Shown piece by piece: positions 7,271 to 63,165 of a stretch of DNA of 64,000 bases; position 1 is the first letter of the stretch, and every line of letters begins with the position of its first letter. The notes under the pieces are model-generated. The model saw only the letters and a program-made list of their open reading frames with translations. It was not told the origin of the DNA and searched no databases. The stretch comes from Blasia pusilla (lineage: Eukaryota), in assembly GCA_050084515.1 (NCBI GenBank), contig CM114271.1, positions 682,001-746,000 on the forward strand, written 5' to 3'. The position numbers and the translations under genes were made by a program.

Positions 7271-7274
7271 TCAC

Positions 7275-8650: not shown

Positions 8651-8671
8651 TCGTATATTACATACTTAGTT

Positions 8672-17602: not shown

Positions 17603-17665
<63 letters not shown>

Positions 17666-23286: not shown

Positions 23287-23408
23287 CCGTCACCGGAGAA
23301 GAAGATTGTTGGGAAGAGTATAGAGCGGCGGAGGATGTATGAGACGTCTCTTTTGGAGGTTCGCAATTTGGTGCTGTGTTTCGTGGTTCGGAGCAGAGGA
23401 AGTGAGCG

Positions 23409-24690
23409 ATGGCGCCTTCAGTGGCAAGTAGCGGGATCGCAGTGGGATTGAACAAGGGGCACATCGTGACCAAGCGGGAGCTGGCGCCTCGCCCATCTGC
23501 CAACAAAGGGGTGAGTGCCTATGATGTCCTCGCCTTCCTGTTGGAATATGGTTGTGTGAGGGTCTTGTTTTGGGGAGAGATTGTGGTGCGTGTCCGCATT
23601 GGTGTCGGGGTTCCAAATTCGAGTTGGTGGTCTTGGTGGGGCTTTTCCCGTACTCAAAATTGGGATGTTATCCGCCACTCTTTTTGCTGTCTGCGATTGT
23701 GTCTTAGGTCGGAATTTTTTCCGTTTTGTGCACACGTTAAAGAAAACTTGCGGGGATCGGTGTGGGAGTCGTGGATGGGAGTAGTCTGCTCGTTCGTTTG
23801 TTCTTGCATTTGGAGCTTGTCCTGTTCTCTGAATTGAGATGTTTACCGTCTTTTTCCTGTCTTTGAAAGTTTTCGGGGCCGGCGTTGTGTCCATTCGGTT
23901 GTTCACAACCGACGTGCTTGTGGTGGAGTGTAATGCGCTTTCGCACCTGTTTTGGAGTTCGGAACATGGGTTTCTTGTTTGTTTGTGGTTTTAGATGTAG
24001 CCTAGCATGTCCACCTTCCCCTGTTTTCGAAATTGAGACGTGCACCTCCACTCCTCTGGCGTCTGTAAGGGTTTCTAAGGTCGGGATTGAGCTCGAAAAA
24101 CTTGGGTCTTTCCATGCTGCGGCCATTTGCTGGAGTCTTGAATGCTCAATGCTCCATGGGTGATCACTTGATCCCCATTATACTCTGTCGAGGTCAAGCG
24201 GAAGTGTATGAGCGAAATGGCCGCCTTAAAGAAATTGAACGATATATGTGAACTTACTGTCTCTGGGTATTGAACCTTCGCTTTGCGTTGCAGAAATTGG
24301 GCAAGAGAACTTCATTTGTGAGGAAGCTGATCCGCGAGGTTGTCGGCTTTGCCCCCTACGAGAAGAGAATTACCGAGTTGTTGAAGGTCGGTAAGGACAA
24401 GAGGGCCCTGAAGGTGGCCAAGAAGAAATTGGGCACCCACTTACGTGCCAAGAGGAAGAGAGAGGAGATGACGACCGTTCTCCGCAAACAAAGGTACTAT
24501 CTCTACCTTCCGACTTCTAATGCCGCAACAACAGGCGAATATCAAACATGTTAGGTGTCATTAAACCTAATCTTAGATAATGGTTTGAGCAGGGGTCTGA
24601 ATATTCTTGCTGTCGAATTTTGTCTCCAGTTTCTGACTTCTCTGAGTGATGTTCAGGGCTACCGGAGGTACTGAGAAGAAGAAGACTTAA
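23409..24690 (+). CDS. RPL36: 60S ribosomal protein L36 (eL36), 3 coding exons, 111 aa
   Basis: Exons 23409-23510, 24294-24493, 24657-24690 with GT-AG introns. Spliced protein [111 protein letters not shown]. Confidence 0.97.
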
Positions 24691-34500: not shown

Positions 34501-35666
34501 AGTATTGAAGCGAAAGAGAGTCTTACCAAACATAGAATACATATCATTGGGTTTCCAGACATTCAAACACGGATGAAAAGATGTTCATACTATGAACACT
34601 TTAGATTTGGTGTTCATCCACATATTGGTAACCATGATAACCAAAGGCTAATAGAGCAATTTTTGAATCGAAAAATTGCATGATGTTTTTTCTAGTACGA
34701 AATTTATCAATGAATGTAGCTATAACTAAAATATAGAGAATACATGACTGTAAGAAGGGTGTAAATAACTTTTATTAAGTTGTAACTTTCCTCTCTAGTC
34801 ATAACTAGTTTGGAGGTCAGAGGGATATGCTTCACTTGGATAGCTACTATTCAAATGTACGATACTTACTACCCTCCAATACGCGGTTATGGAAGGAAAC
34901 ATGATTATGCTCACATGGAAGGAAATAATTGCGTAAAAATGCAATAGAGGATATTAGAATGCGACCAAGTTGGTGTTCCATGTCTGGGGCACAACTACGT
35001 GAATATTTTGATTATCTCTCGTTGCCCTAAACGCCATACAAACTAACATAAAACATAGAGGGATCGTTCCTCCATATTGGAATAATCCCCTAAATGCATA
35101 ATTAACATGGGAATGGAGATCAAAATTTGATGAACAACTTTCATGTGTTCCGCTTAAATTTTCATGATAACATTAGAGGAAGCTTGAAAGCTCGTAAGTA
35201 AATTCTTGAGAGTCTACAACTATAAAAGAGTCAGGTCTATCAATAATCAATTCAAACCCTCCTTGTAATCCTCAACCTTGGAGGATTTCATCTTTGTTAT
35301 AATTCTTGAGCCCCATTATTGATAAGGTTGTCCAAGAGGGCATCGACTTTCATTTGTTTTGTAAGGTTCTTAGTTTTGTAATGTTGATGAGGCATTGAAT
35401 TGTCCAAAGGCCAACATGAATCTACATTCTCTTGTTACGTTATGACGTTCTTGAGTTGGTTCACAAGAGTAGCCAAATCCAAATTAGTACATGCCAATGA
35501 CTTCCATTTCTACCTCCATATTCATAAACCATTTTTGTCCACTCTTAGGAAGGACTCCACTATTGAAGATTGAGTTACAATCAAGCTCATGAGACACCTG
35601 GACTGCTACATTTGGCACTCACACGAAGTATGGAAGTTTAATCTTGGTTAGTCAATTTTGTTTGTT

Positions 35667-35821
<155 letters not shown>

Positions 35822-40330: not shown

Positions 40331-43300
40331 ATCCAATGGTGAAATATTAGATGATGCTCAAAGGAAAATACATAAAGCCCTCTAAGAGAAGTATCACTTA
40401 ATTTCACTTATCTATCTCAATGCGAGATCGATGAGTGAAACCATTTTTAAGACCATTAGATTAATAAGAGCAACAGATTGTCTCGCCCAAGGTGATGTAA
40501 CAATTTGATTAAGGGCCAATTGCACAACAACTCGAGGTTAAGGGTTTGCAAGGATCACCGCGAGGGACAATTTTAACGGCAGACAAAAGTGTTGTAATTT
40601 TGAGAGAGCCATGTGTGATTCTGAAACTCATTAGAGAGAAAAAGAGAAATCTGGCGAAGCCCTTGAGAACAACAGTGTGAGTGTGCTTACTTTGTCACTT
40701 AGCGTCGAAAGGTAGGAAATTGTCACATCCCATTTTTTCGCACATTTCACTTTATACTATTTTGTTTTTTTCTTTATTCACTTTTGCTGATTTTTTTATG
40801 GATTTTATTTTTCCATGGTAGATGCATCAGGTTGAGAGTTGAAAGCAAGCCACTATTGCATTGCGCAACTAAGTGATTATAATAGTGAAAGGGTTATTAA
40901 AATCCATAATTGAAAAAACTATAATAATTATGCCTTAATAAAAGATTGCAAAAAAACTAAATATGATCTGATTAATTAAATAACAATAATAGCAAAGGGT
41001 CACTTTAAAGGCCTATGGTCGCACATGATGTATTATACCCTCTAGATGACATCCTTGAGCTTTCTTCTCCCTAGAAATTCTAACATGATCTCTTTCCCTT
41101 CCCTAATTTTTACACTCATCAAAGTGTCAAACTACACGTGTATAACTATTTTATCTTCTCGATTTACTATTTTGTCTTATTTCACTTGCCATGTTCAGAG
41201 AAATATTATGGTATTATGATTTATATTTTCTTAATTGAGACTTTGGAATGTAGTCTTTGATGTTTGGTACACATACTTTTTTCTATAAAAATCTACCATA
41301 ATACAAAAATGTTGCAAGTAATCAAAGATTAGAAAATATCTTGTCATCTAAAGTAAGTGTTAAACTGACTACGCATCCATAAACACAAGTTTTCAATATA
41401 ATCTTCATTTTGATTACATTAGACTCAAGACTATCTTTATGTGTATGTCAATTTTATGTTTTTCTCACTCTCAAAATTTTACAATAATTTGGCATATACT
41501 TGCCTACTCTCGTGTTTTCTCATGGAAAACTATTTGTCACTCTATTAAGAGTAGGAATGAGATGTTTGACTCATACCATAGTTGGAAATGAAAAACATCC
41601 AAAAAAAAATTGGTATACTTACAATGTTGTACAAAAGGAAATAAGTTAAGTTTTTTTTCAAAATTCCTTTTTATCCAATTTCTAACCATAATGATCAAAC
41701 GTAGAAAATGATATGATTCATAAAAAGATCTATAATTAATAAAAATATATGTAGTCAATTTTGATTTCCACAAGCAAGATAATTTGATAATTGATTGATT
41801 GATTAAAGGAAATGTTTCATCAATCATTCCATTGGCTTTCTGACTCAAAATAGGCTAAGAGAATCCAAAGGTTAATTCAATGGAACAATGAAACTTTCAA
41901 CGTTAAAAGTTCCATTATTCCTTGTTTGAGAATATTAAATAAAATATTAAAGAAGAAAAATCCCACATGCTTTCTTAAGAATGAGGCGTGGGATGCACCA
42001 GCTAAAATATATGAGTCTAGAAAATTATGAAATACACTCTATGTGTGTCAATAACTTATAACGAGGCAAGTTTTATATGTCTTCTTTTGTATGAATAAAT
42101 CATTGAATTGAATGGTTGGTTTTATCTTATTTGATTAAAAAAAACAAGGTTGTAATTCCTTTACATCTTCCTATACTCGTAATTTTTGTATCATAATCGC
42201 TATACTCACAGTTTGCCAGTAGCTAGCAAGTATTTTGCAAGTGTTCTATAAGTGTCCAAAAAATTGATCCGATAACTCGCGATTCATTCTCTTTTTTTTG
42301 AATAAGAAACTCAAATTTATGAGTTTTATACTTGCAACTTTGCAAGTTGTCCACATATGTATTATAAATGTACTACAAATATATTATGGCTCTCCACACT
42401 AAAAAAATTGCATCAAATTTTGTTATAAACCATATTACATCTATAATTGGTCTATAAATAGAGTTATATTGTATAAAAAATATAGGGAGCCAATGAATTA
42501 TTTAGACAGAACTGTGTCCTAAGGATTTGATGAGGTTGGATATAGCTACATTGTGTTGAGATTGATGTTTAAAAAGACATACATTTAAATAAATGGGCTT
42601 ATTTGCGAAAACTTCAAGTATTTAGAACTCATTAGTCACCATAAAATTGATAATGTCACTAACCTATTCACCTTCCATAAACTCCAAGAAAACATTAATA
42701 TGTTGGATGCATAGGTCCAAAGCAATACTATGATGATTTCCCTTTCGCAAGTTTGGGAGTTTATGAGTTATTCAAGCTTGAAACTTGACGTGCTAAGTGG
42801 AATATTTTTATTAGACTCACATCCACATGATGAAGTATCTAACATAGAGTCTCTAAAGAAAGATACAACCTTCTAGATATTGCAAGCTTTCAGTGTGGAT
42901 AAGTAGGCACCCTCACTTGATTTATCACAAGAATCGACACATCTAAAAAAATCACAAAGATCATGTACTTATAATTCTTGTAGGAAAATTTAGATTATTG
43001 CTTAATAGAGAACACAGTAGCTCATCAAAAATCTTCTCTGATAACCCTAGTGGCTTCTTTACAGAAGCAACGTGATCATCTTGTAGTCGATGATACCTAC
43101 TTTGTGTGGACTTTCCCTTGCAATGTGGGTCTTGTCATTTGTCTCAAACTACGCTTCCAACTTGGATCCATGATTAAAAATTGACTACTAAAGGAATATC
43201 CCTATGTAAGACCAGAGAATATATCTTACTGCTAATAGTTATCTAGAAAAAGTCCACATTAAAAAATATGTGATTAAGTTGAGTAAAGTACTTGGAAAGA

Positions 43301-43479
43301 CAAGATCCATATACACAAAAGAACTTAGAAACTAAGAGTCAATGTAATGCATGTCATGATTTAAACACGAAGATAGTGAAAAAGTCTAAGCTACTACTCC
43401 GCTCTCTATCCTTATCATATATGAAATCATGGTATGTTCCTTAAACTATCTCCTCTTCCTTTTTCACATTGTAATCCCT

Positions 43480-44100
43480 ATTTGCTATTACTATTTGTGT
43501 CTCCCATAGTTGAATTGCCCAACCAAAGTTCTAGCAAATATTACATCAATAAGTTGAGTAGGGCGATATTCACATTGATTCCTCTAGGTTCAATGTGATC
43601 ATTTATTCATTGTTCGTAACATTCCCCCATCACCTTTCTTGATCTAGCATGTTTTTTCATGGCAACTTTCCATCCAAGTTTCTCTTATGCGTCTGCGTAA
43701 AAAAAACAAGACTCGTATGGGGAAAACAAACGGATGTGAGTTCAAGGGTAGGCATCTCTGAAAATTAGCTAATATGAATCCTTTCTCATTATAAATCATG
43801 GTTGGTTCTCAAGAGCTCCATCTTAATTGAAGCCCTTTTCCTCTCATAGAGACAATGGTTGTTTTAAGATCTTATAATCCAATACTAATGTCAGAAAACT
43901 ATTGAGTTGGTATCATACATAGTTTGGAATAGAAAGATGAAGGCAACTCATGATTCAAATGTGGTGTAAGAACTTCCATCTTCAACCTTAAAAAGTGATT
44001 ACCATATGGTCTCATCTTCTGTTACAAGGTGTAAGATCGTGAATGTCATGGAGTTTTACCTCTATCCATCCTTGCTTCATCCCAAATCCATTCTAAACTT
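43480..44100 (-). mobile_element. Very degraded gypsy RT remnant
   Basis: Minus strand near 43640-43500 gives KKGDGGMLR...QLIDVIFARTLVG, resembling the start of gypsy RT. Weak. Confidence 0.3.
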
Positions 44101-44379
44101 GAGCACTGCAATCAAAATTCCTGAATCAAGTCTCAAAGACTCAATTGGGTACATTTGAAAGGTAGTCAAGAAGCCATCAAGCGATAATCTAGTAAAGTCT
44201 CCCAAAGTGCACATCCTCTTCCTAGGAATATTCTTCCTCAATCTCCAAAAGTCTCATGTATAATTTCTTGGAAAAACTTGATCTGATAATATCTTTTTAC
44301 GATTATCCAGTCAAAATACAAAACAAAATCCATTCAATTATCAATGGCCTCACTTATACTAGATTGCATCAATTATTTC

Positions 44380-44890
44380 TTTAGGATGTGTCTCAAACGA
44401 TGTTTTAGCTCAAACCTGAAACACAACCAAACATACATCACAGTTAATCCATTATTCATGGATTTGAGCAAGTAGGGAGGGAGATTGTCCCCCCTATGGA
44501 TTCTTCTAGGGTTCTCCATAAGAACCCCATCTCCTCCATTCTCCATCTTGGACCTATTATTTTGGCCCCCTACCCAAATGTGATTCACGACCCCTTTCCC
44601 AAGCTCTCTTCTCTGTAATCTATGCTCGTAGGTCACCTCCTTAGTTCTTGACCTGTTGTAGGAGGTCAAAGGCCACTTCCCAAAGTGGAAAGTCAATTAT
44701 ACCAAAAAAGACATTTACCAAAAATAGTAAGTTACTCAATATTGTTCCAAATGAGCCGAAATGAAAGGCAACCTCATCTCTGAAGTTTCCCGTGATCTGA
44801 ACAGATCATCCTCGATCTCCTAATCATGTCCTCCACGATCCTCGAAGGCGCTCTTCTAGATCTCGTCGATCTATTCTAAAATACATGACA
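44380..44890 (-). mobile_element. Partial LTR related to the DNMT/PHD gypsy LTR
   Basis: Starts TGTCATGTATTTTAGAATAGATCGACGAGATCTAGAAGAGCG, matching 55737 (tgacacgtcttttaggatagatcggtgagatctagaagagcg) and 17979. The 3' boundary is approximate. Confidence 0.7.
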
Positions 44891-45839
44891 GCTTGTAACA
44901 TCACATTGCACCATTAGATGGATTTGAAAGTTGTAGAAGAATATTCTTGTTTGTATTTCAATTTAATGAATGATTTTTTTCGTATCCACATGAAATGCTA
45001 ATATCCTCATGTGAATTATTTGTAACTTCTCAAGAATTGGAACGGAGATTATATTTAGTGACGAGTTGTATATTTATTAAATGGATGCTACTTCTCCTTA
45101 AGAAAAGAGAAGTGGAATTGTTACAAAGACCAAGAAGTTGTTTGGGAGGAAGGGATAACTATATTTACTAAAGGATTGCAACCCAAAGAAATAACTTTCA
45201 TGCATAGCTATGATAACTATACTATAATATGGGGGGGGTGTTATTTTTTTCCTTTTACTTATTCCCTCAAAGAAATGACACCTTTCCTGAAAGTGAAGAC
45301 CCTTTGAAAATAACAAGATTTGAGTGAATTTTGCATGACTTAAAAAAAAAGGGATTACTATAATGATATTTTTATGGATTTAAAATCTGAGTAAATGAGG
45401 TTATAAAATAAAAAACATGAACTTAATAATAATGGCGTCCAAAGTTCCTATCGAAACTTAGGACACCCTTATTGGGAGAATAGGGTGTCTCATAAACGTA
45501 TCTTTGGCTCGGACGTACAAAGCAATAATTCGGTAAATGGCCAAATTCCGTGCTTAGGTACGGGTACCGTCGGAGGTGGACGCTCACCTCCTACGGTCGG
45601 ACGTTGAAGACATATTTGCGTGTGCTTAAGTAGGAGGCCCTCCAAGTTACGGAATCTATCAATAAGAGGTTCCTCATACATAAATGGAAACCATCTTTAT
45701 TTTATGGTAAAGAGATTTAAGGACGTCCAAAAGTTTACGTACTCCAAATGAGAATAAAAATATTCATAACACCCTTTTCAATGAAAGGGGAGGCCAATAT
45801 CGTCTTTTAGTGCTAAGGAGTCACAACTCACGTGACAGT

Positions 45840-46445
45840 CGGCCTCTGTCCGAGATTCTGTCGCTCTTTCCGTCTGTCTGCTACGGGCGGTTTCACGCCC
45901 AACCACAACAAAGAGTGCGCCTTTGTTGTGGTTTGGTGATATCTCAGCCTTTAGATGCGAGGAATGCCGCTTTGCGTACTCGCCGCTTTGGCCGGGACCG
46001 TGTCGGTGTTCCCGTCCGTCTAAGACCACGCCTCTACCATGGTTTCGAATGAAGGACGTGTCACTGTGGATGAGATCCCGCTTTGCGTACACAGTAGTGC
46101 CCCTTTGTCCGGGACTGCGTCGGTGTTTCCGTCCCTCTAAGACTAGCGTGTGCCATAGACCACGCCTTTGTCGTGGTTTCGTACAATGGAAGAGTGACTT
46201 TGGATGGGATACCACTTTGCGTACTCGGTGGAAATTGTAGTGCCCCTTTGTCTGGGATTCTGTCGGTGTTTCCGTCGCGCTAATGCGAGCGGTGTTCCAA
46301 AGATGACAGCTTTAGAGTAGTTCCGTGTGACAGGAGGCAGAGTTGAATCGCTTCTTTGGATGCCAATGCCGAAGGTGTAGGTAGTACTGTAGTAGCTCCG
46401 TTCCCCTTTGTACGGGATTCGGTCGGTCTTCCCGTCTCTTTTCCA
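45840..46445. repeat. Degenerate GC-rich tandem array, ~110-160 bp x5
   Basis: Recurring core cccctttgtccgggact..gtcggtgtttccgtc with gctttgcgtact and gaccacgcct..tggtttcg, at about 45850, 45990, 46100, 46245 and 46405. Confidence 0.7.
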
Positions 46446-49400
46446 CGAGCATCCCGCCGTGAAGATTTGCCGTGGGATATCTCGTTTGAGCTTTCCCGAC
46501 GAGAATTTTCACTTCTAATTAATTCACGAAAATTAGTAAAATTTTATTTACTTTAATTTGTACAAGTTTGGATTGATGTGAGATTTAAGAGGATTTTTAT
46601 TTTCTTTACATTCATTTTCTGTTTTTATTTTCTATTGTTTTCCACTCATGTAACCTATCCATGTGTATTCCATTCTTCCTTTTTCGGGGTAAGTGTGATT
46701 TTGCAAGATTTTTTTTTTTTCTTTCCTTTTAGCACAAGGGGCCGAAAGGTTTTGTCATATTGGGAAAACGATATTGATAAAACAAGAGCCCTCCCATTTT
46801 ACATCTCCTTGAGTTTATATTTCCCTTACTACTTATGCTCATCTAGTGCCAACATTCTTTGTAAGGTAAGTCCATAAAACAATTTGAAGTAGGCATTTCT
46901 ATTTCCAAAAGGTTTTTTGAAAGTAAAACGAGGGTTATTTGTGATCAGTAAATATATCCCAAAGAAAATCTTCACGACGGTTTGTCGATGAGATCGGTTG
47001 ATTTGTTGCACCACGATACTTGTTGCTGCACAGCACACGTCTCAGTGAGAGAGTGTAGATTGAGTGCCGCATGTTTAGTTTGAGTGATTGAGGGATTACT
47101 TGCGAGATTGAGAGTGATCGTGTGAGAGGGGCACGAGGGTCATCACGGCGTCCTTTCACGATTTTAAGAGGCGAGACCCGAGAGTAGCTCTAGAGGGTTT
47201 ACCCGGAGTGGTGCGAGGTTTTTGAGGGTCTCCACGTGAGAGGCCACCTCGATCTCCTTCCGTGTCATCTTTAGACGAGGGGGAGAGTGTAGAGGAGTGT
47301 GTTAGTGATCCATCGTACACATTGAGTGGTCCTATCAATTTGGGCGTACGAGATGGACGACCGGGGTAGAGGATCGCGTAGGTTTTCGGATGCTGTAGGC
47401 ACCATAGAGCTACACGACTTCATTGCGGAGCTTAGGAGTTGGTGTGACTCACAACAAGCTAGGAACTCTAGAGAGTTAAACCCATTTACAACATGGAACG
47501 GCATGTTCCAGCATTTAGAGGGGGCGCCCATGGACGATTACCATGAGTTCTCCCACAGATATACCCAGGAGATTGAGGCATGACGACTCTACTATGACCC
47601 ACACTATGTATCATGGACGAAGCCGTTCCCAGATGAGGAGGAGGAGTCAGGAGAGGCTACTTCCTCTTCCACTAGTGATTTTTTAGGAGGGGCCACTCGC
47701 ATTGGAGCAGTTGCACCGTCTAGTCGGGTTCGTCCCACGTTCAATCCCGTGGTTGAGTTCTTTGTTGAGTTGAGGGCGAGCTACCAAGGGGTACGGACGG
47801 AGAAGTTGCGGAGGAGCCTCAGCATGGCGGAGGAGATGGTACTGCACCAGGAGGTTATCAGTGTGACTATTGTCAGAGGTATGGTCACACACTCGCCAGG
47901 TGTTTCAGTTTACATCTTGAGTTACGTCGGGACCGAGGGCCAGATAGGGCACCAGAGCGAGTAGCCTCTCCGAGTGGGCTAGAGATCGTGCACCAGGTGG
48001 TCCCGTTGGGGGACGAGGAGCTAGAGTTGATTGACAAGGTGGTAGAGCTGCATGTGGAGGACGTAGAGTCCCACCACCTAGACGCATCGAGGGAGACGCC
48101 GGGCGTGAGGCTGGGATGGTTGCTCAGATACAACAGCTACATGAGCAGATTGCTGCTATGGCATTGGGGTTACCCAATGTCGAATCCGTGGCATTGACAT
48201 CATATGGAGCAGGCAGAGATATGGAGGATCCTGGTTGGATGTGCAGGGTTGCCCACATGGAGGCCGCCGCAGTTGTGACGCGTGGAGCAGCCGCAGAGTT
48301 GGATCCACAGCGAGGGGAAGCCAGGACACAGACTAGGCTTCCTCAGTCTTTCACGTTGTCCAAGGCGATGAGGACCCCATCGATGGCTCCTGATAAGAGT
48401 TCTTGGAGAGTTGGTGAAGTTGTTGGTGTGCAGGCACGGAGAAGCAAATGCGACGACTCCTATTGCTGATGCTCAGGAGGGGCATGTATCGAGCACGTTA
48501 TTGGGGGTGGCCACCATTGTGTACCGCGTTCCTTTATTTTCCGCTTTCGATGTTATGACGTTGGGAGGTACACTCGTCGAGGTTTTTTGGCTGGCCGCTA
48601 CGCTATGTGAGCATAGAGTTGGAGTTCCTACATCACATTCAAAGGTGATTGCAGAGGAGGTGATGGACCTGCCCTTGGAGCGGATGCTCGGGCCATCCAC
48701 GTCAGATTCATGGCAGGCTGCGGCCGCTAGGATGGCAAAGATGCCCGCTAGACCCGAAATAGAGTGTGCCATGGCTTCTCCTAGTGTTGTGTTGCTGGAT
48801 AACCGAGGAGAGGTCTTCCAGTTGGTGAGTCCCGGAGGTAGAGCTTTTAGTCCACATCGCGTCTTGTTGGATTCAAGAGCGCAACCCCTGATGTTGGGGA
48901 AAGCGTTCTTCTAAGGATAAGGCTTGAAGAGAGCCGATGTGGAGCGTTGTCCATTCCACATACAGACATCCTTGGGTGGATCGAGTACCACACAGTATAT
49001 CACATGACAGGAGATCATAGTGAGGATTCGCCTAGGCATCCTACAGATAAATCCATGGTACGAGCCAAGGCGATAGTGACTGATGCAGAGTCCTATGACG
49101 TCTTGGTTGGTGGAGCAATGTTATACTCGATGGGGTTTTCCTTGGATTACTGGGAGGAGTCAGCGTCCTACAGACCAGGATGGAAATCAAGTGATGGGCG
49201 CCTTAGCTCATTACCCGTTCGATTCACAGGTGCAGTGATCGAGCGACGGCTAGGAGAGATGGCAAACTTAGCAGCATTTAGCAGTGCCATCACTTGGCCT
49301 AGTGATTTGATTGAGGGACATGTTCATGCAGAGGGTACTCCTGTTCGTGCCATTTCTATGGAGAGGAGTGTTATGGTAGCCGCATCAATCCGTGGAGGAG

Positions 49401-49582
49401 AGGTGCCGCTTTGGGGCTCGATTGAGGAGCTTTGACGCTTAGCCATTGAGCATGTGCGGACCGCGTGGATCGAGACGCTTGCACTAGAGTGTGACGGGTC
49501 AGAGGAAACCCAAGTAGGCAGGAGTGCTGCTATGACCCCTTTGGACACCACCCCGATTGTGTGGTGCATCCCAGAGGAGGGT

Positions 49583-50520
49583 ATTCGGGTGTTGGATCTC
49601 TTTGGAGGGATCAACATTGGGTTAGCTGCTGTTTTGCACGCTGGAGTGTGCGTGCAACACTACCTATATGTTGAGATTGATGATTTTGCGAGGCACGCTT
49701 CACTTCACCATGTGGAGCTTTTACGCCTCCGTTTTCATGGCTTGTTGTCTACGTACGCCATTCAGGGTTACTAGAGTTCTTACCAAGGGACATTTCATTG
49801 TTGGGGGCGTAGGACTTGGAGCGAGTAGGGACCATAGACTTGGTCATTGTTGGTTGGCCGTGTGAGGGCCAATCGAGTGATGGACGAGGTAGCGGGTTAG
49901 TTGACACTCGGTCCAAGTTTTTTTGGGAGATGATGCGAATCTTGCGACATTTACAGGAGCATCAGACTCGTTCTCCAACATACATTTTGGAGAATGTGCC
50001 AATTTTGGACGATCCGAGGTCCTGCGTGGTGACGAGTGCACATCAAGTGCGCGCATGGACCGGCTCGGCAGTGTTGTTAGGTGCGAAGAGTGTAGGTTCT
50101 AGAGCACACCGCCCGCATCTTTGGTGGACCAACTTGGTACCACATGAGGTGTTGCGGAGGGCTTATGCGGGAGTGGAGCGTCCCTCCAATTTGTTGGGGG
50201 ATTCTATATTGGATCCGGGCCGTCAATCATAGGCAGTGAGGCACGATGATCGACTGCCATTGATTGTGGTCAACAGGATTGGCATGCCACGAGCAACCTT
50301 TCCCACATTGGTAAGTTTTCCCTCTTCCTATCCATTCAAGGAGGCCGGACCAGGCTTGGTTTGGGATGACCAAGTACAGAGGTTGGTGGAGCCCAACGCC
50401 GATGAGCGAGGGCGAGCGATGGGATTCTCCATAGGAGTGATGACAGTATCATCACTATCGGAGGCATCACAACGTCATATCTTGGGTCAAGCGATGGACC
50501 TGAACTCTTTGACATGGATT
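49583..50520 (+). pseudogene. C5 cytosine DNA methyltransferase domain (DNMT3-like) embedded in gypsy pol
   Basis: Motifs in canonical order: I IRVLDLFGGINIG; II YVEIDD; III PRDIS; IV IDLVIVGWPCEGQS (PC at 49858-49863); V GLVDTRSKFF; VI YILENV (49981-49998); VIII SRAHRPHLWWTN; IX EPNADERGRAMGF; X RHILGQAMD. One frameshift (~49775) and three TAG stops. Confidence 0.9.
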
Positions 50521-50804
50521 TTCAGCTTAGGAGTAGATTAGCAGCGTCGTTTGAGGATGCGACAAATCACAATTGTTGCGTTGGTGAGCCCCATGCCTAC
50601 CAAGACAGTTGAGGCAATGGCTGGAGGCGAGACCCAAGGAGATGGACACACCAGGGATGATCGGAAGAGGCACTATTGGACTCCTTGGGATGTTGAGCAA
50701 GTACACCAGGAGATGATAGCCACATCATTGAGTGTGGTTTTGGGTACTACACATTGAGATGAGAGTTATATTTTGTGAGACGGGGTTGCACTGACATCCA
50801 TGCC

Positions 50805-51153
50805 GGAGAGTCCTACCGTAGTCACGATGGAGACTTGGGAGCCAGATATGAGCCCTAAGTTGACAAGAGGTGAGCGGCGTCGGATACACTAGTTCCTTAG
50901 GAGTTATAGGAGTTGTTTTGCATTTAGTATGTATGATTTGGGTATGCTGAAGGGTCCAGAGATCACCACCTAGCAACCACCGACATCCGCCTTGGAGAGT
51001 CCTACCGTAGTCACGATGGAGACTTGGAAGCCATATATGGGCCCTAAGTTGACACGAGATGAGCGGCGTCGGATACACTAGTTCATTAGGAGTCATAGGA
51101 TTTGTTTTGCATTTAGCATGCATGATTTGGGTACGCTGAAGGGTCCAGAGATC
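50805..51153 (+). repeat. In-frame tandem duplication (~190 bp period) just upstream of RT
   Basis: ggagagtcctaccgtagtcacgatggagacttgg...gctgaagggtccagagatc occurs twice (50805-50964, 50994-51153). Confidence 0.9.
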
Positions 51154-53526
51154 CGCATTGAGTTGTTGAGTGACACGCCAATCTTTCGACGATCCTACAG
51201 GAACATTGACATGGAGAGGGCTCTGATTTAGAGTAGGATCCATGACTTGTTTGGAGCAGGACTAGTGGAGATGTCACATGGAGAGTATGCATCTGCCACT
51301 GTCATGCCCGCCAAGAAGGATGTGCATGGCAACTGGACGGATAGGCGGATGTGTGGAGATTACTGACATATCAATCGGCAAACGAAGTCCAATAGGTATG
51401 CCATGCCCATCCTTGAGGAGATCTTTGATGCGATTGGGCATGCAAAGGTCTTTAGTTCATTGGATTTGCAAGCCAAATATCATCACTTGCCTATCAAATT
51501 GGAGGACAGGCAGAAGACGGCATTTTGGGACATCAATCCTCACAAGAAGGATTGTTTGTATCAGTGGCGGTTCTTACCATTCAGGTTAAAGAACGCTCCG
51601 GCTGAGTTTAAGAGGGTCATGGATAGGATCTTGGTAGGTGTGGATTTTGCTAGGTGTTATATTGATGACATCGTAGTCTTTAGCGCCACGGTTGAAGAAC
51701 ATGAGTGACATCTAGAGGAGGTGTTTCAATGATTGCACTTACATGGGCTAAAGCTACATCCAGGAAAGTGCAAGTTCTTCTACGACCAAATTGAGTACTT
51801 GGGTCATACGATATACCCTGGGATCTTTGGTGTGCAACACCAAAGATCCCTACATGAAATAGCCTCTACCTTTGTCCCAGGGCGTGGAATGCATGAAATA
51901 GCTTCTACCTATTTAATGCATTCCATGCCCTACTGATGTGAGTTGAGTTCGTACATTCATGGGATTGGAAAATTTCTATCGACGATACGTCAAGGGTTTC
52001 GGTTCGATTGTGAAGCCACTAGCCTTGATGACCAAGGTGGATCAAGAGTGAAACTGGGGGGATGAGCAAGAGAGAACATTTTAGATGCTCAAGGATAGAT
52101 TAACTTCCGCGCCCATATTGAGGAGATCGATAAGGGGGCGTCTTTTCCAGATGCATACCGATTGGAGCATGTTGGGGCTTGGAGCCGTGCTCACCCAGCA
52201 TGACGATGATGGTAGAGAGTTCATGGTGGCTTATACTAGTTGCTCAAACAACGTTGTAGAGGCGAAGTATAGCTTGTATGAGGGTGAGTGCTTGGATACA
52301 GTATGGGCTGTCACACATTTCAGATGTTATCTATTCGGCTATCCCTTAACCATCATTACTGATCATCAGCCACTTAAGTGGTTGATGGAGTCCGACAAGC
52401 TTACATGGAAGCTTGCAAGGTGGGCTCTTTTGTTGCAAGAGTATGACTTCTATGTGGTGCTTAGACATGGGACGCTCAATGAGGATGCAGATGGTTTGAG
52501 CCGTAACCCATGCCCGAGTCAGCGAGATGCAATTGGAGCTCGTTGGCATGGTGAGAGTGATGAGGAGTTGGTGCCAGGATGGCATGCGTCAGCCTATTTG
52601 GGCTTGTTGGCTATGGAGAGCGAGATTGCTGAGACTTCGATGGCGAGGTCTGATGGAGAGTCTTTAGATCGAGAGGACGGTGAGGAGACGACATGTGGCC
52701 GAGACATTCATGACGATGGAGTGGTCTTGGAGTACCCACATATTGGCAACGTCGCGAGCACAATGGATGCTAGAGAGGGGGATCGGATCCTATAGCGAGC
52801 CAAAGGGTCCCGGTGGGAGGGCATACATGTGTTAGGAGTGTGGGAGGATGGTAGAGTGTGTGTAGTGCCTCATCCTTTGCAGAGAACATGTTTCGTGCGT
52901 CATGCCCACGAGGAGTTGGGTCATTTTGGAGTGAAGTGGACGTACAACTTGCTCCAGATTCAGTATTGATGGCGAGGCATGCAGATTGACGTTCAGCTAT
53001 TTGTTGCCAGATGTATGGTGTGTGATCGAGTCTGAGCATGGTTCAATGCTCCAACTTCACAGTTTCATCCACTTATGATTATGAGTTTAGGTTATAGATA
53101 GAGTTTGGATTTTGGAGGATCTTTGCCTTTGACGGAGCGCCATAGTCATTATGTGTTGGTGATGGTCGAGCACTTCTCGAAGTGGAAAGAGTTGGTTGCA
53201 TTGCCTGACAAAGCAAGCGAGGGAGTAGCGTATGCCTTCCTAGATCGAGTGCTGAGTCATTACGGCGCATCAGTTGAGGTGTTGACAGACTAGGGTACAA
53301 AGTTCTGCGGGGAGTTTTAGGCCTTGTGTGATCAGACAGTGATCGATCACCGCACTACTTCGCGAGATCAATCCTGAGGCAGATGGACTAGCGGAGCGGG
53401 TTGTGCAGACGGTAAAGAGAGGATTACGCAAGTATGGCTTGCAGAGAGGTCACCTGGGAGATTGGGACCTTCAGTTGCCGTGGTTGGCGAAGGGATATAG
53501 ATTCAGCATGCATGCATCCTTAGCAT

Positions 53527-54802
53527 TGTCATGTCAAGAGCCTTTCTTCGAGTAAGGGCAGGCCTTATAGCTACGGTAGACGTGGTCGATGCAAGGTGAA
53601 CTCTCTAAGAAGTTCTCTTCTTTTAATACAAGATTATTATGTATACTCTTCATTCTCTCACAACAGGTATCACAAATTGAAGTGCCGAGGCGATCACTTC
53701 TTCATAACATCAGACCCCAAAATTCATAACTATAAACTCCCTATAAATTACTTTACGCTTGTACAAGAGGAAGATAGCATAACTAGTGTTAAATCCTACT
53801 TGAGCAGGCCTATTGACGTCCATGGATCACTATATAAGGACATACAAAGTACAATCCCATGTCCTTCCATATGTGATAATAGGAAGGATCACGTGAGTTG
53901 GAGATTGAATGACTTGGTTCATGAACGACTCCCCAAAGTGATTAACTAAATAGCGAGTGAACCAGTGCCTATCTACAAAGAGTATCTTGACATGGTATGG
54001 ATTGAGGAAAGGAAAATCGGGCACAACTCGTGCTCCATCCCTATCCATGTTTGATAGACATGCTCTACTCTCCTCAAGAATGGGTTTTGGCGGAGTTATT
54101 CTCCCAAGAGGGTAATCCACTCTCATTGGGAAAGTAATAAGCCAAAAAATTCACTACTTTAGTATGACTATCCACCTCTAAGGTGACAAACCTCTCATCT
54201 CCACACACACACCACACTATAGAAATCTCTCGAAGAATAGACCATGGTCAAGCTACTCTCCCAAGAGGGGTGATCCACTCTCATTGGAAGAGCAAGCAAT
54301 CCCAAAGCCATACACTCAAGAGTGACACGAAAGACTCAAGATGTGGAATAGAAGGTGATGAACCCTCGAAGGTCCCTCCTCTTTATATACTCACAAGAGA
54401 CCCACAAGAATACGAAATAGTGCTAATCTTATCTTGTGTCACATGGCTTCCTCTCAAGGCTTAGCCAATCATATTTTGACACAAGTAGATTTCCTCTTAT
54501 CTCTTCCAAAATATCCTCTTTTACCCAGTTGATATTTTCCAAATTACCTCAACTAACCTAGCCACCAACCAAGTTTACTTTTGCTTTTCATTAAAGCACC
54601 AACCTCACTGCTTTACTTTTATAAAGTCATCTTTTATTTATTACCTCTTTTCTTAAAGTTGGGCCCGCATAAAAGAGGCACCATAAAGAGGTTTAAACAT
54701 GGAATTTCCTTTCCCTAAGCTAATTTACTTAATACTAATAAAACTCTATCTAAAACTTAACGAGGAAAGAGTTTACACACTGGCTCATTTTACTATACGA
54801 GA
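53527..54802 (-). mobile_element. ~1.28 kb solo LTR nested in the integrase of the DNMT/PHD gypsy
   Basis: TGTCATG...TACGAGA termini, 4-bp TSD gcat/gcgt. Removal restores integrase RFSMHASLA|SFSLYLLLYGREP. TATAAA-like box on minus (~54385). Confidence 0.75.
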
Positions 54803-55736
54803 GCGTCTTTCTCACTATACTTGTTGCTTTATGGCCGAGAGCCATATTTACTTGCGGCCATTCGTCAAGATACTGGTGAGGTGTTGAACCTTGATGACCC
54901 TGATGTATGGATGCGAGCATGTTCTCAGAGGGTTGAGTTATTTCGGAGAGTGATGCCCATGGTGTTTGAAAACTTGATGATTGCGCAACATCGGGATACG
55001 TTGAGGTATGCGACTATTCGGGGAGGTGGTTATCGACCTACTATTCGGAGGTTTCATCAGGAAGACTATGTCTACTTGCAGCAGACGGCACCCACGACGT
55101 TGGATGTGATTATAGGACGCACCATCTTGAGAGTGCGTGAGGTTTTGCCATCTGGTGTTTTCTTATTGGAGGGACGCGATGGTATGGTTTGGAAGGACCA
55201 CGTGCATAACTATGCGCCATGTCATCTTCCGAACATTGACGGTACAGTTCATCCAAGCTTAGCAATAGTTCCTACAGACTTGCGATATATGTTGTGTGGT
55301 TCTGTTCGTGGTGCAGCCACTATGCTAGTCTGTGATGAGTGTTCGAGAGGATGGCATATGGCATGTTTGACGCCACCTCTCACTAGGGTTCCTCAGGGAC
55401 GATGGATGTGTCCCATATGTACATAGAGTAGGTAGTTCTATATTCCGACTTGTGTGTGTGACATGGATGACAAGAAGGCAACTAACGATGGGGCCACATG
55501 AGCACCCGACCTTCTTGCTCTTAGCGTCTGAGAGATGTATGTCATGGTAGGTAGGGATAGATGGCTATCTGGGGTTAGAGGGATCTAACCACCAGCTAGG
55601 GGGGCCATTGGAGATATTTTGGTACTTCTTGTCTCGTTATTTTGATGCCTTGAGTTAGCATGGGATCGTGCGTGTTTGTGTGTGTGTTCAGTGACAACGA
55701 TGTATGTTGTGTAGCGATGTGTATGCGCACGATAAC

Positions 55737-56532
<796 letters not shown>

Positions 56533-58909
56533 CTTGCCTCCTTCCCTTCTTGGGATATTGTTGACTTTCCTTCTTCTCTTATGATATTTGCTTTTATAAT
56601 AAAGTGGGTTCTCTTCTTTACTCTAAAGGATGGAAGGAATAGATGTCCTTGGAGTCACTACAAGTAGCTGGGACATGGATGGTGTGGGGATAATTTTGAA
56701 TAGTGTGGAGGTTAGTTTTAGTTTATGACCAACTATTTATGGATACCAATCCTTAGTATGAAATTATATAAATATCTTAGATAATACATAAATTTTGTTG
56801 GATATGGTTAGTTTGTATGTGAGCATAATAATCTAAGAATGAACATTGATAGTTATCCTTTGTATGAGTCAATGAAAATGGGAAGAAAAAAATTTCAATT
56901 CTTAGGGCACCTTTGGTCATAAGTTCTTAAAGAGGAATTGATATCGTTTGAGGGTTTTAAAATGTGGCTTATAAATTTTTAAGCCATATTCCCTCTCAAA
57001 TCCGTAGGAAATCCTAAACATTGCAACCACAAGGAGAGAGGTAAATACACTTCAATTTATTCACGTGAGGACTTCATATGAGGATTTAATTCGAGGCCAC
57101 CATCTTAGGAAATTCAGTTTGTTTGAGAATCTTATTATGGGCCTCTACATGAATTTATCTTACACATGTTGACTAAGTTTCTCTCCATTTGGAAGAGCAA
57201 CACTAAGTGACCCCAATGTTGAAATCACCTTCCTTGTTCCTCCTTGGAAATGTCCAAGCCCTACTCATCTCCCAACCAACTAATCTTTGTATTTAACTAG
57301 CCTCGATCTTGTAGAGAGTTGTAATACAAAACTCAACTATTGAATAGAGTGACTCTACGTACCTCGTTTGTACAAATGGTGCAAGCTTGGGAGAAGGCGA
57401 CAAGCATATCCCTCCGTAAGAGTACAAACTCGTTGATCTTGTTTTGGATGTTGGTGAGATTAGCTTGTACGGGATTCACACTTTTTCTTTAGCTATGACT
57501 GGGTGCTGGGTGTAGCGTCGGTGTTCCAAACTCTTTGAAACCCCCTCCTTGTACTTTCAATGGGTTCTCCCATCTCCTTTTATTCATATCTTGTTTGCTC
57601 TCTCTCATTAAGGCATATCTACAAGAAGATACAAAATTTGAAAACTTTTATCCTTAATAAGCGCATTCTCCAATATGATCTTAGTTAAAGTGGGTGCCCC
57701 TCACCCACTTTCGCTAATGTGGAGCTCAACCCTACAATATTGCCAATGATTGAATGCAGCTTCATTTGCAATGCTTCATCATGTTTGCAATTAAAAAGTT
57801 GTAGGAGTCATTAGGGGAAAAAAGGGTGATTTCAACTTTCAAGGTGGGAGTGAGTCAAATTTTATGCCACATTAAATTTTTTTAAATACCACCGTAATAC
57901 AACCACTTGTATCATTTCATGTGACAATTTATTTAACTCCTCCAACTAACACTAGACATACCATACCCTCCTTTGCATAGAGATATGGAGATGCTATTGT
58001 ACTATGATGTCTTACAAATGCCCAACTTAAACAACAACTATTAGATGGAAAAGTACTACAGTACCAACTTAGAAAAAGTCACATTTTTCCGTTCCTTAAT
58101 AAATATGAAGCTCGTCATTCACTTTCATCCATTTGAATGTTTTCCTAATTTTTCATTTTAATATAAATTTAATACTTTTAATTACCAAAATTCAGGTGGA
58201 GGGGATGCAGCGTACCCAGATAGAGATCGAGGTGGGACCAGGAAAGGTGTCCCCTGATAGAGGACGAGTGGGACCGGCGAAAGGTCGAAGGAGGAGATGA
58301 CAGGCGACCGGCTTACGGATTTGGAGCAACTTTCTCTCGGTACTGTGATGGAGACTTCGGAGGTCGTTGGATTCATACTTATCACTGGCCCGAAGTTGAA
58401 GTAGATCCCTACCCAATTGGCTTAGAGCTAAAGAGACGATAAATCCAAGTTTTCTTTATTTTGGAATACTTTTCGCATTTGTAATATATTTCTTATTATT
58501 ATATGATTTAATAAATAATAGAAGAAAATGGTAATGCTGATTAGTGTCCGGACGGGAAACCGAGGAATGTGGACAGACGCTCTTCTCTCTGCAGAGTCTG
58601 CACCACAACTGAGCCTGGACTCTGTGGTGAGACGAGGAGGTGGGGTCCGGAAGGCATGACACGTGGTGCTCCCGTGGTCAATGGCGAGAAGGTGAGGGAG
58701 GACTTGATGAGACACGGAAGCATCTCGGCCCAACAAGGCGGATTCACAAACCGGGGTTACCGGACTTAACAGAACTGCGAGTCAGCCGGACAGTCCCTGT
58801 GGGCCTGGACCGCAATTATTGTGCGGGGAGGAAGCAGGTAAGGGCGCAGTTTTACGGTACTACGGGCAGCGGCAGCAACAACCCCTCTTCGCTTCTTCCT
58901 GCCTCCTGT

Positions 58910-61359: not shown

Positions 61360-63165
61360 TTGACACCTTTTAGGTAGTGTTTGATCATTTCAACAAGCAA
61401 GCTCACTTTGTGACTTTGTACCTTGATAAGAAACCACTGTAACTTGCAAGAATCGCAAAATCATTCCTAACCCATATGTTTCAATTGCATGAAATCCCAA
61501 GAGACATTGTGAGTGAAAGATGTCACATCTGAGTAGCCGATAGGCCGAGATCTATCGTGGATAGGGCGTAGGAGCCAGCGGACTATCTTGAGTGTAACTT
61601 TGTCCCACGGTGTCGGATGAGGTTGAAGATAGGTCCATTGTGTCAAGAACGTCGTTTCTGACAACTTTCATGTTGAGGTCTTTTACAGTCGGGTGACTTG
61701 TTGACCAGGTCACTTGCCCTTGGTAACCTGTGCGCGCAGGTTACCAAGGGGAGGGCTATTTTTAGGGGAAGATCCTTTTGGCTCTTCCCAACCCTATATA
61801 AGAGAGGAAGATGGCTTTCCTAAGCCATCTTTCTCATGTTGGGCCGTTGGAGCACCTCCCTTGTATGTGTGTGAGCTAAGACTAGGGTGCTAGCGTCCGG
61901 ATTCCTTGATAGCACATGGTGGACGAGGCTCGATATGCCGATGTAGATTGAGGAGTGGAGTTTTAGGCAGGGTGTACCATTTTTACTACTCTTTATTTTT
62001 GTTGTGTGATCTCCATGTATATGTATGAGTTGATTTTTGTACATGTGTGGATCGACCCGTGTGTGGGGAAGATCGGTGTTGTGTGGTGTAGATGTGACGA
62101 GCGATGTATGTTGTGTAGCGATATGTATGCGCACGACAAAGAGATGCAAAGTTCACCTTTGAGTTTTGGACTTTACTAATCACGCATCTTGGAACCAATC
62201 TCTGTAACCTGCAAGAAGTGCAAAATTATTCCTAACCCATGTGTTTTGATTGCATGAACTCCCAAGAGACATTGTGAGTGAAAGAGATGAAACGTTCATC
62301 TTTGAGCTTTGGAATTATCTATTTAAGTTTAGTGCTGCCTATCAGTCGCAAACGGACGGCTAAAATGAACGAGTGAACCATGTTCTAGAATAAGGCCTGT
62401 GCAACTACATTGTGGGTGATCAAAGAGATTAGGTATACCATCTAGCCTTTCAGGAATTTGCATATAACTCCACTTGCCATTTGAGATGATCTATCGAGAA
62501 CGCCACCTACTACTCACACCCTTATCCTTGTCCATGTGGAATGAGGCACACCGGCCTAGGGCTTTAGCCATGCCCAAAGTTGATTTTTTTCTGAATATGA
62601 ACGAGTTTGTGTTGGATCTCGTCACCAAAGCTAACATGGCGAGCACTCAAAAACAGTGCGCCAAACACGCCAACTAGCATCCACGCGATGTGGAGTATTA
62701 GGTGGGGAACAAGGTTTGGTTGAAAATGAGGAATTTTTATTTCCCGGCAAGCCATATGTGGAAGCTAGTACCCCATAGGGTGGGACCTTACAATATTATC
62801 AGACTAGCTGCCAAGGTGGCTTATAAATTTCAGTTGTTCGCCACTGTGAAGAGTTGTCATCAGATCTTCCCTGTTTCATTGCTAAAAAAGGTTGTCGAGG
62901 ATTTGGACCAATTCTCGTCTCAAGAACCAAATTGGCACCATTTTTTAGAGGCTTTACTAGAGTTGCAAGGCATGCGAGTGGAGGAAATACTGAAGGGGAG
63001 AATGATCGCGAATTGCGAAGGTCACTTTCATGGTGCGTTTCTATGGACATGGGCCGGCCCCGAGGGGTGGAGGCTACTTGGGAACCATTGAAGGCGCTTC
63101 CTAGGCAACAGATAAGCATCCCACTCAAACGATGGTTGGAAACCCAACTTAAGCAAACGTGAAGA
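61360..63165 (+). mobile_element. Decayed chromovirus-type gypsy integrase + chromodomain, with an internal tandem duplication and nested solo LTR
   Basis: VVFDHFNKQAHFV, PRDIVSERD..F..EFW, QTDG, KVWLK..VGPYNII..VAYKFQL..FPVSLLKK (GPY/F), VEEILKGR..EATWEPL (chromodomain). Confidence 0.8.
61521..62138 (+). mobile_element. Solo LTR with 4-bp TSD
   Basis: TGTCACA...GCACGACA, TSD AAGA (61517-61520 / 62139-62142). The duplicated empty site gtgaaagagatg is visible at ~62278-62290. 3' end nearly identical to the LTR end at 55699-55734. Confidence 0.85.

Follow-up and report, generated by a model that had tools for sequence, protein, structure and literature searches.

Ty3/gypsy-type retrotransposons that carry a DNA methyltransferase of the DNMT3 type have been described in Klebsormidium nitens under the name KnitGypsy-Dnmt3 (PMC5890265), and a 2026 preprint names 'streptophytes (Gypsy-DNMT3)' (bioRxiv 10.64898/2026.05.21.726589). 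The published tree places the K. nitens copies with Dnmt3, and the case was interpreted there as lineage-specific (PMC5890265). Here we report an analysis of a 64,000-nucleotide stretch of the genome of the land plant Blasia pusilla (assembly GCA_050084515.1, contig CM114271.1, positions 682,001 to 746,000), which we call the window and number from its first letter. We put the probability at about 0.85 that positions 46990-56532 of its forward strand are a copy, dead and truncated at its 5' end, of a Ty3/gypsy-type family that normally encodes, among its genes, a DNMT3-type cytosine-5 DNA methyltransferase (hereafter DNMT).

In KnitGypsy-Dnmt3 as in the window element, the polyprotein unites the domains of a gypsy element with a DNMT3-type domain in unpermuted order, and purifying selection is indicated in both, with Ka/Ks below 0.2 in K. 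nitens (PMC5890265) and values of 0.12-0.14 in relatives of the window element. The legend of figure 4c in the same paper speaks of DIRS-like repeats, and a B1-A2-B2 arrangement of terminal repeats is found in the window and in two related metagenome loci, L012 and L026. The K. nitens protein GAQ93235.1, possibly one of the published copies, shares the layout of a CCHC knuckle, protease (PR) and DNMT. The systems differ in host, which is a land plant here, with liverwort and moss copies as the nearest named relatives; in abundance, with thousands of copies here and few said to be present in K. nitens (PMC5890265); and in the tree, where other branches lie closer to the window domain than that of K. 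nitens does. A stop before the reverse transcriptase (RT) and a PHD finger, both described below, do not appear in the text of PMC5890265.

To judge from its gene order and sequence, the Blasia family is of the already described streptophyte Gypsy-DNMT3 kind, and since the CCHC-PR-DNMT layout recurs in a K. nitens protein, the novelty lies in host range and detail rather than in kind. The original prediction, made from the letters of the window alone, had known of no well-described case in land-plant gypsy lineages; this stands insofar as no land-plant case is named in the literature searched, but the kind itself was already known from K. nitens. Full-text searches for the element names returned only the 2018 paper (PMC5890265) and the 2026 preprint, and nothing relevant was listed for Marchantia or bryophytes together with DNMT and retrotransposons. 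The words 'Marchantia' and 'liverwort' are absent from the text of PMC5890265, whose supplements may list bryophyte copies, and the gypsy reference survey PMC6317226 mentions neither PHD, methyltransferase, Marchantia nor Klebsormidium. Four things appear to be unpublished: that the family occurs in land plants, a model liverwort among them; that it is abundant and transcribed in the present host; that the enzyme lies in the first open reading frame (ORF1) before a conserved stop; and that there is a second, algal architecture.

That second architecture is seen in algal elements with the order RT, RNase H (RH), DNMT, integrase (IN) and PHD (Scenedesmus sp. PABB004, P0016, and many metagenome proteins). 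Their RT, RNase H and integrase are related to those of the window element and they too have a PHD finger at the integrase C-terminus; their DNMT, 31-37% identical to that of the window, lies between RNase H and integrase, whereas the window's lies between protease and RT. SymbioDIRS-Dnmt3 of Symbiodinium likewise bears a DNMT3-type domain in a retrotransposon polyprotein, one that methylates CG in yeast (PMC5890265), but its backbone is that of a DIRS element, tyrosine recombinase included, its host belongs to another kingdom, and the authors infer an independent acquisition (PMC5890265, bioRxiv 10.64898/2026.05.21.726589).

A methyltransferase domain integral to the family

Positions 49436-50541, between protease and RT, encode a C5 cytosine methyltransferase. 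Motif I (LDLFGGINIG, 49592-49621) lies in frame 2; motif IV (GWPCEGQS, 49852-49875) and motif VI (ILENVP, 49984-50001) lie in frame 1, as do SRAHRPHLWWTNL at 50098-50136, which includes HRPHLWWTNL, and the stretches ERGRAMGF (50404-50427) and RHILGQAMDLN (50473-50505). The order is unpermuted, with motif I ahead of IV, VI, VIII, IX and X, in a domain that is split by one frameshift and broken by stops in this copy. The piece 49813-50232 matches PF00145 with an expectation value (E) of 1e-8 (35.5 bits against a cut-off of 22; relatives score 31-58 bits), and with the read-through translation of the window, matches to Marchantia polymorpha proteins reach E 3e-92 at 62% identity, a likeness far above chance. 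The original prediction had listed these motifs, in unpermuted order and with the Pro-Cys and ENV residues present, and had proposed a PF00145 search; all of the motifs could be located, and the profile match is significant. It had also read the protease C-terminus and the N-terminal part of the DNMT in one frame and the C-terminal part and RT as far as YIDD in another, and these proved to be frame 2, where a TGA stands at 49433 and a TAG at 49772, and frame 1.

The same domain occupies the same place in related elements. A protein search with the intact DNMT domain of one Marchantia protein (a 341-residue query) returned 74 proteins. Fifteen of these come from M. polymorpha gene models, of which 13 span at least 73% of the query, at 82-100% identity, and the remaining two cover only 54% and 24%. 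The query is matched at 77% identity by a protein of Calypogeia fissa and at 51% by one of Sphagnum fallax, many ORFs of 1230-1450 amino acids (aa) are 47-53% identical, and a further set at about 40% also carries RT, integrase and PHD. The Pfam order in the matched proteins is PR-DNMT or DNMT-RT-RH. When metagenome contigs were scanned, 303 of 599 candidate stretches encoded relatives, and 80 loci were retained. K. nitens GAQ93235.1 is colinear with Marchantia ORF1 (29% identity over 569 aa, E 1e-54), Closterium has both halves, as CCHC-PR-DNMT and DNMT-RT-RH-IN proteins, and M. polymorpha has an intact gag-PR-DNMT ORF of 1278 aa. Even a second, fragmentary copy within the window (7916-8523) shows the same DNMT-RT junction. 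The family layout is gag(CCHC)-PR-DNMT, then RT-RNaseH-IN-PHD.

Reads of the host species, from one DNA run and three RNA runs, were compared with positions 42001-56250 at 80% likeness. DNA depth, with both orientations summed, stays within 0 to 0.9 in the flanking stretches 42001-43900 and 45801-46750. It reaches 1870-2147 across gag, 1697-2265 across the DNMT, 2219-2961 across RT and 3300-3800 across the integrase and 3' end, and the DNMT is retained in all 15 of the best-supported read joints. Because the depth of the element is thousands of times that of the flanks, the host species holds, as a rough ratio, on the order of thousands of family copies. Since the order of domains is the same in five named genera and 80 metagenome loci, and since the DNMT is as deeply covered as gag, the DNMT belongs to the family as an integral component of ancestral origin, and a nested insertion is excluded.

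RNA depth over the element is 30-260 in the three runs. First mates on the minus strand outnumber those on the plus strand by a factor of about 4 to 100, in most bins by about 10 or more, which for the usual stranded libraries means sense transcripts. Most of the RNA reads are less than 90% like the window and thus originate in sister copies.

By sequence profile and predicted fold, the element enzyme is DNMT3-like. DNMT3A came first (1.7e-8) when solved structures were searched with Marchantia ORF1 by phmmer. A profile of six DNMT-only sequences matched DNMT3A/B/C at 8e-19 to 1e-14 (57-71 bits), and on the same scale tobacco DRM at 1.8e-8 (37 bits), HaeIII at 3e-7, HhaI at 1e-6 and DNMT2 at 4e-5 to 2e-3; DNMT1 was unmatched by this profile at E up to 1. 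Motifs VIII and IX stand close together, as they do in DNMT3 (88 profile positions apart here, 64 residues in DNMT3A). The fold was tested on an intact relative, the Sphagnum-like domain of L001, rather than on the window copy: an AlphaFold2 model from a 52-row alignment reached a predicted local distance difference test score (pLDDT) of 95.3 (an earlier six-row model, at 46.9, was not used), and the Foldseek matches listed for it were all DNMT3A/B/C, with a best E of 7e-20 and TM scores of 0.80-0.84 on catalytic-domain chains, at a sequence identity of just 20-23%. The sole cellular protein found by sequence is a fish DNMT3-like protein (P0080; E 1e-3, about 25% identity).

Cellular DNMT3 carries N-terminal PWWP and ADD reader domains. 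In ORF1 Pfam shows only CCHC, protease and DNMT. With cellular DNMT3A/3B/3C, its best profile and fold matches, the element enzyme shares the catalytic fold and motif order, but it lacks PWWP and ADD and is fused to Gag-PR, with a PHD finger on the integrase instead. DRM appears as a distant relative of DNMT3 (E 1.8e-8), and its motifs are permuted (PMC5890265) whereas those of the element are not.

An uninterrupted DNMT domain is present in five of the 80 metagenome loci. Ratios of nonsynonymous to synonymous substitution rates (dN/dS), which come from relatives and not from the host's own family, were, for L018 against L029, 0.143 in the DNMT (dS 0.25), 0.108 in the protease and 0.044 in RT, and for L018 against L028, 0.120 (dS 1.35, near saturation), 0.140 and 0.030, respectively. 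Among 14 ORF1 proteins with an overall identity of 32-36%, the residues of the motifs vary little or not at all. The DNMT domain is under purifying selection in intact relatives. On the level of the family, then, the original prediction was borne out in seeing an integral polyprotein domain rather than a nested one and in its DNMT3-type resemblance, and the dN/dS comparison it had proposed came out, in intact relatives, in favor of purifying selection.

Two side observations concern the bryophyte sequences. In the DNMT tree, Sphagnum fallax P0014 hardly differs from locus L001; and moss and liverwort DNMT domains are 72-77% identical, on short bryophyte branches, which is close for lineages that split long ago. 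This closeness could reflect strong constraint or transfer between bryophytes.

Organization and decay of the window copy

The copy in the window is dead (Table 1): it is 5' truncated, partly missing gag, frameshifted and interrupted by many stops, and it carries a 189-nucleotide (nt) duplication and a 1280-nt insertion. Protein-level matches to Marchantia, Sphagnum and L018 ORFs span 47350 to 55423, and from the DNMT through the PHD finger the element is 63-74% identical in nucleotides to several related metagenome loci. DNA depth climbs from below 1 to several hundred in the bin 46751-47225, and variant rows begin at 46996; since depth sets in near 46990 and the DNA before this onset is single copy, the copy is truncated at its 5' end.

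The gag remnant contains a CCHC knuckle, CDYCQRYGHTLARC, at 47862-47903, and has an internal deletion near 47813-47816, where about 1299 and about 1229 DNA reads continue unlike the window at 47813 and 47816. The protease active-site motif, in the third frame, reads LLDSRAQP (48864-48887) against LLDSGAQP in relatives, and the protease stretch YDVLVGG lies at 49094-49114. The frameshift region within the DNMT contains TAG stops at 49772 (frame 2) and 49810 (frame 1), and in-frame stops within the domain stand at 49810, 50230 and 50539, the latter two also TAG. Frame 1 has 11 stops over 49741-51708, and the RNase H/integrase part has nine in-frame stops within 51920-53368. Given the frameshift and in-frame stops in the DNMT together with the DSR of the protease, the enzyme of the window copy cannot be made.

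Table 1. Coordinates, strand and basis of the features of the element and its relatives in the window.
Feature	Position	Strand	Basis or remark
Whole Gypsy-DNMT3 remnant	46990-56532	+	5' truncated, no upstream direct repeat A1; protein matches and read depth
gag remnant	47350-47924	+	tblastn of P0003 residues 9-158 and 334-354
Aspartic protease, split across frames 3 and 2	48447-49114	+	homologous place in L018 ORF1 has Asp_protease_2
DNMT N-terminal part, frame 2	49436-49774	+	motif I aligns with motif I of relatives
Frameshift from frame 2 to frame 1 inside DNMT	49765-49812	+	tblastn segments switch frame
DNMT C-terminal part, frame 1	49813-50541	+	PF00145 and alignment to relatives
ORF1 tail and ORF1/ORF2 boundary	50542-50793	+	MAFFT alignment
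Tandem duplication of ORF2 start, 189-nt unit, 1.8 copies	50789-51153	+	L018 ORF2 residues 22-66 match twice
Reverse transcriptase, frame 1	50830-51846	+	PF00078 E 8.5e-13; YIDD at 51658-51681
RNase H and integrase, frames 2 and 3	51920-53521	+	PF17917 E 3.3e-30; 57-79% identity to L018 ORF2
Insertion of another, unclassified repeat in integrase, 1280 nt	53522-54801	.	no counterpart in related loci; reads skip the insert
Integrase C-terminal region with PHD finger (about 55292-55420)	54802-55426	+	PF00628 E 2.5e-10; 62% identity to L018 ORF2 residues 830-1035
3' repeat block B1-A2-B2	55607-56532	+	direct repeats; homology of B to L012 B1/B2
Repeat B1	55607-55735	+	homologous to L012 B
Repeat A2	55736-56238	+	direct repeat analysis
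Repeat B2	56239-56532	+	(GT)93 run inside, 56300-56485
Inverted diverged repeat A	44591-44891	-	74.5% identical to 55736-56041; not the element's 5' repeat
Second fragmentary family copy: DNMT end (motif X), linker, RT start	7916-8523	+	tblastn of P0003 1181-1258, P0020, P0014, P0005, P0024

The best solved relative of the RT is that of Ty3 (E 3.5e-21; Ty3 Gag-Pol 2.1e-20), and this Ty3-nearest RT, together with the domain order PR-RT-RNaseH-IN, is characteristic of Ty3/gypsy (Metaviridae-like) elements. The integrase core profile rve matches weakly, at E 9.2e-5 and 23.1 bits, under the Pfam cut-off of 32.6. As in chromoviruses, the integrase ends in a chromatin-reader module, which here is a PHD finger (PF00628) and not a chromodomain. 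Within the integrase, 600 DNA reads and 31-40 RNA reads per run join 53521 directly to 54802, so the 1280-nt insert between these positions is foreign. The insert is AT-rich and itself repeated, with a depth of about 1000-1700 in reads of the host. Its transcription runs opposite to that of the element, and it shows no clear terminal repeats.

The ends of the family are best seen in L012, where a direct repeat A (8501-8844 and 17259-17601, 91% identical) is accompanied at its 3' copy by a flanking repeat B (17147-17261 and 17601-17715, 93% identical). L001 and L026 show parts of this layout (in L026 at 6513-7080), and the A1 and A2 repeats of L001 are 94% identical. The family layout is A1 ... 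B1-A2-B2, with a B of 115-130 nt and no B at the 5' repeat A1. The window copy has only the 3' repeat A2 and not a pair of long terminal repeats: no 5' direct repeat was found in the window, and the lone upstream match is inverted, with a depth over 44591-44891 of about 264 against about 3750 for A2. From the host's DNA, 240 reads join the end of A2 (56238) to the start of B (55607). Relatives of B2 carry a short GT-rich core where the window has its GT run.

The A1 ... B1-A2-B2 arrangement resembles the split direct repeats of PAT and Ngaro elements, and is unusual for an element with a DDE integrase. Further pieces of A and B are scattered through the window at 21425-21795 (minus strand), 17305-17979, 62080-62138 and 44591-44891. 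The first of these is 71-77% like A and B of the Sphagnum-like L012, whereas the A2 of the main copy shows no likeness to L012 A, so that two or more subfamilies may exist in the host.

Elsewhere in the window, RNase H and RT fragments of related gypsy elements lie at 10587-10996 and 16079-16504 (both minus strand; 32-42% identical to Marchantia and Sphagnum proteins), and an RT ORF of 392 aa that looks LINE-like by eye lies at 4102-5280 (minus strand; best database match 44%, with Closterium among the matches). By eye, we noted a copia-type integrase/RT at 12533-14591 (plus strand), a ribosomal protein L36-like exon at 23406-23837 (plus strand) and a ubiquitin-conjugating enzyme-like exon at 29169-29675 (minus strand). 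Long (GT)n microsatellites occupy 56300-56485 and 35659-35820. Rfam gave no match over 44000-57000, and the observed/expected ratio of CpG, 0.66-0.70 in the element against 0.69 in the flank, gives no signal in either direction.

The junction between methyltransferase and reverse transcriptase

The gene layout is intact in L018. Here ORF1 (976-5082, 1369 aa) encodes CCHC, protease and DNMT and is followed by TAG CAG TTA, and ORF2 (5086-8226, 1047 aa), in the same frame, encodes RT, RNase H, integrase and PHD. L028 has an L018-like layout with the stop context TAG CAA TCA. Among 23 Sphagnum-like loci, 22 have a stop at one site (TAG in 14, TAA in 8) followed by CAA CCC, and one has TAC. The DNMT end and the RT start are both present in 62 loci and share a single frame in 41, with exactly one stop in 18 of these and none in 11. 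Marchantia and other ORF1 proteins end about 80-150 residues past the DNMT.

In the MAFFT alignment the TAG or TAA of the relatives falls on CTG at window positions 50791-50793. Sister copies in the host have one added base behind 50792, which creates a TAG in the RT frame, in 325 of 628 DNA reads and in 28 of 33, 17 of 18 and 21 of 24 RNA reads of the three runs. A placement of the relatives' stop by eye at the TGA at 50776 was overruled by this alignment and by the reads.

A stop followed by CAR-YYA is the leaky stop context of the tobacco mosaic virus type. The in-frame stop between DNMT and RT suggests, from sequence, translational readthrough, in which Gag-PR-DNMT would be the main product and RT-RH-IN-PHD would arise from occasional readthrough. 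Because the DNMT ends ORF1, upstream of a presumably leaky stop, the methyltransferase would be made in Gag-like amounts, and it could be carried in the particle. There it might methylate the element's own new cDNA or the integration site, while the PHD finger of the integrase might read histone tails for site choice. Packaging of the enzyme and methylation of new copies may occur, and we offer them as inference only. The original prediction had placed the DNMT inside pol. In the closest lineages it instead ends ORF1, with an in-frame stop before RT, and it is part of a pol polyprotein only in the readthrough product or in the subgroup with a continuous ORF. In one sublineage, seen in L032 (10751-11695), the DNMT-RT frame is continuous with no stop and the Pro-Cys motif GWPCQG reads GWECQG.

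Relationships, alternatives and meaning

The distribution of the domain was followed with a profile search of 1.84 billion representatives, which returned 11082 proteins at E up to 1e-3, 1940 at up to 1e-10 and 428 at up to 1e-30, and with a domain scan of 225 sequences (the protein-search matches and the top 150 of the profile search, plus L018, without the window read-throughs). Two architectures emerge. Type A has the order (gag)-PR-DNMT-(RT...), as in the window, and type B has the order RT-RH-DNMT-IN-PHD, as in the Scenedesmus 'pol'. The type-B set includes P0016, P0039-P0072 and others, among them the Scenedesmus 'pol' and a Monoraphidium protein; its DNMT lies between RNase H and integrase, so that related gypsy elements with a PHD finger carry the one domain in either of two positions. 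A FastTree of 200 rows unites all 116 type-B rows in a single 144-row clade (support 98) that contains none of the 36 type-A rows or 4 loci and leaves GAQ93235.1 outside, and in a quick IQ-TREE of 56 rows type B again forms one clade (support 99). The latter tree places the window in a clade of 11 rows (support 100) with Marchantia, Calypogeia, Sphagnum and three further proteins, in which the best identity of the window DNMT is 66%, to Calypogeia. K. nitens and Closterium are among its type-A rows, with K. nitens nearer to type B (support 88).

Several points weigh against the reading of the family that we have given. The copy number is a rough ratio, taken from about 1% of one run at 80% likeness and set against flank depths below 1, and dead copies or readthrough transcription may account for the family RNA. 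No tRNA primer-binding site or polypurine tract is obvious beside A1 and A2 of L012, as inspected by eye rather than by systematic search. At the junction, the 23 Sphagnum-like loci are 86-100% alike and, as close kin, are not independent witnesses; the CAR-YYA context is exact in L018 and L028 only, with CAA CCC in the Sphagnum-like loci and ACA TCC in the host's sister copies; and the 11 stop-free loci, mostly L032-like and 29-34% identical to the query, have a continuous ORF. The placement with DNMT3 rests on solved animal structures and one fish sequence, in a tree without plant DNMT3 or DRM, and that tree is rooted, unreliably, on the same fish sequence (P0080), which has a long branch. 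Finally, the K. nitens domain yielded no methylation in yeast, a result that its authors deem inconclusive (PMC5890265).

This last result would also fit a conserved domain that does not methylate DNA, and that instead has an RNA target, serves as a DNA-binding or oligomerizing module, or titrates host methylation factors. The GWECQG of the L032 sublineage in place of GWPCQG points the same way, as does the position of the enzyme in the structural ORF1, apart from the enzymes of ORF2. We nevertheless consider such a role unlikely: deep divergence has left motifs I, IV (with its Cys), VI (ENV), VIII, IX and X unchanged or almost so, the modeled fold superposes on DNA-bound DNMT3A/B catalytic domains, and DIRS-borne DNMT3 domains methylate CG in yeast (PMC5890265).

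A different question is whether the land-plant elements gained their DNMT independently of Klebsormidium and of the algal RT-RH-DNMT-IN-PHD elements, with the likeness a result of convergence. K. nitens does stand outside the bryophyte clade, grouped (support 88) with a set that holds type B, the position of the domain differs between types A and B, and de Mendoza et al. regard the K. nitens case as specific to that lineage (PMC5890265). On the other hand, a colinear CCHC-PR-DNMT layout is common to the K. nitens, Closterium, liverwort and moss elements, the transposon-borne domains are 30-50% identical to one another against about 25% to the one cellular DNMT3 found, a PHD-bearing integrase backbone is common to both types, and the split-repeat layout of K. 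nitens (PMC5890265 figure 4c legend) is also found here. Taken together, these features make separate gains improbable in our view, and we retain the reading of a shared, DNMT-bearing family.

The heavy rearrangement of the window copy, with its frameshifts, 1.28 kb insertion and tandem duplication, is all that would favor a private capture of the DNMT, whether as a host gene fragment, a nested element in one copy or an assembly chimera, and we give this practically no credence, since the same domain sits in the same place in five named genera and 80 metagenome loci, the second window fragment has a DNMT too, and its depth equals that of gag, with no well-supported joint skipping it. The chance that the locus is a domesticated, transposon-derived host gene rather than a transposon copy is equally negligible, given 11 stops in 49741-51708, the frameshifts, the flanking gag, PR, RT, IN and terminal repeats, and the thousands of copies.

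The analysis thus finds the Gypsy-DNMT3 kind in land plants including Marchantia, able to reach thousands of transcribed copies, with the enzyme in a first ORF that would be abundantly made and with the domain at two places in green-plant elements. These findings shift the picture from a capture in one lineage to a long-lived partnership, and they offer concrete constructs and hosts for methylation tests. The only gypsy case tested so far, that of Klebsormidium, gave no answer on the role of transposon-encoded DNA methyltransferases. A bolder proposal, which we advance as speculative and rather doubtful, is that Gypsy-DNMT3 is an old green-plant lineage and not a Klebsormidium oddity, and that its Gag-level enzyme is possibly a real source of de novo methylation in bryophyte cells. 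Were this true, the order PR-DNMT-RT would extend over streptophyte algae, liverworts and mosses and the order RH-DNMT-IN over chlorophytes, with thousands of transcribed copies in some land plants. The elements might mark their own cDNA or insertion sites, perhaps passing as methylated self DNA or damping their own expression, and might in the process shape host methylomes. Near-intact copies are present in the model Marchantia polymorpha, where genetics could put this reading to the test.

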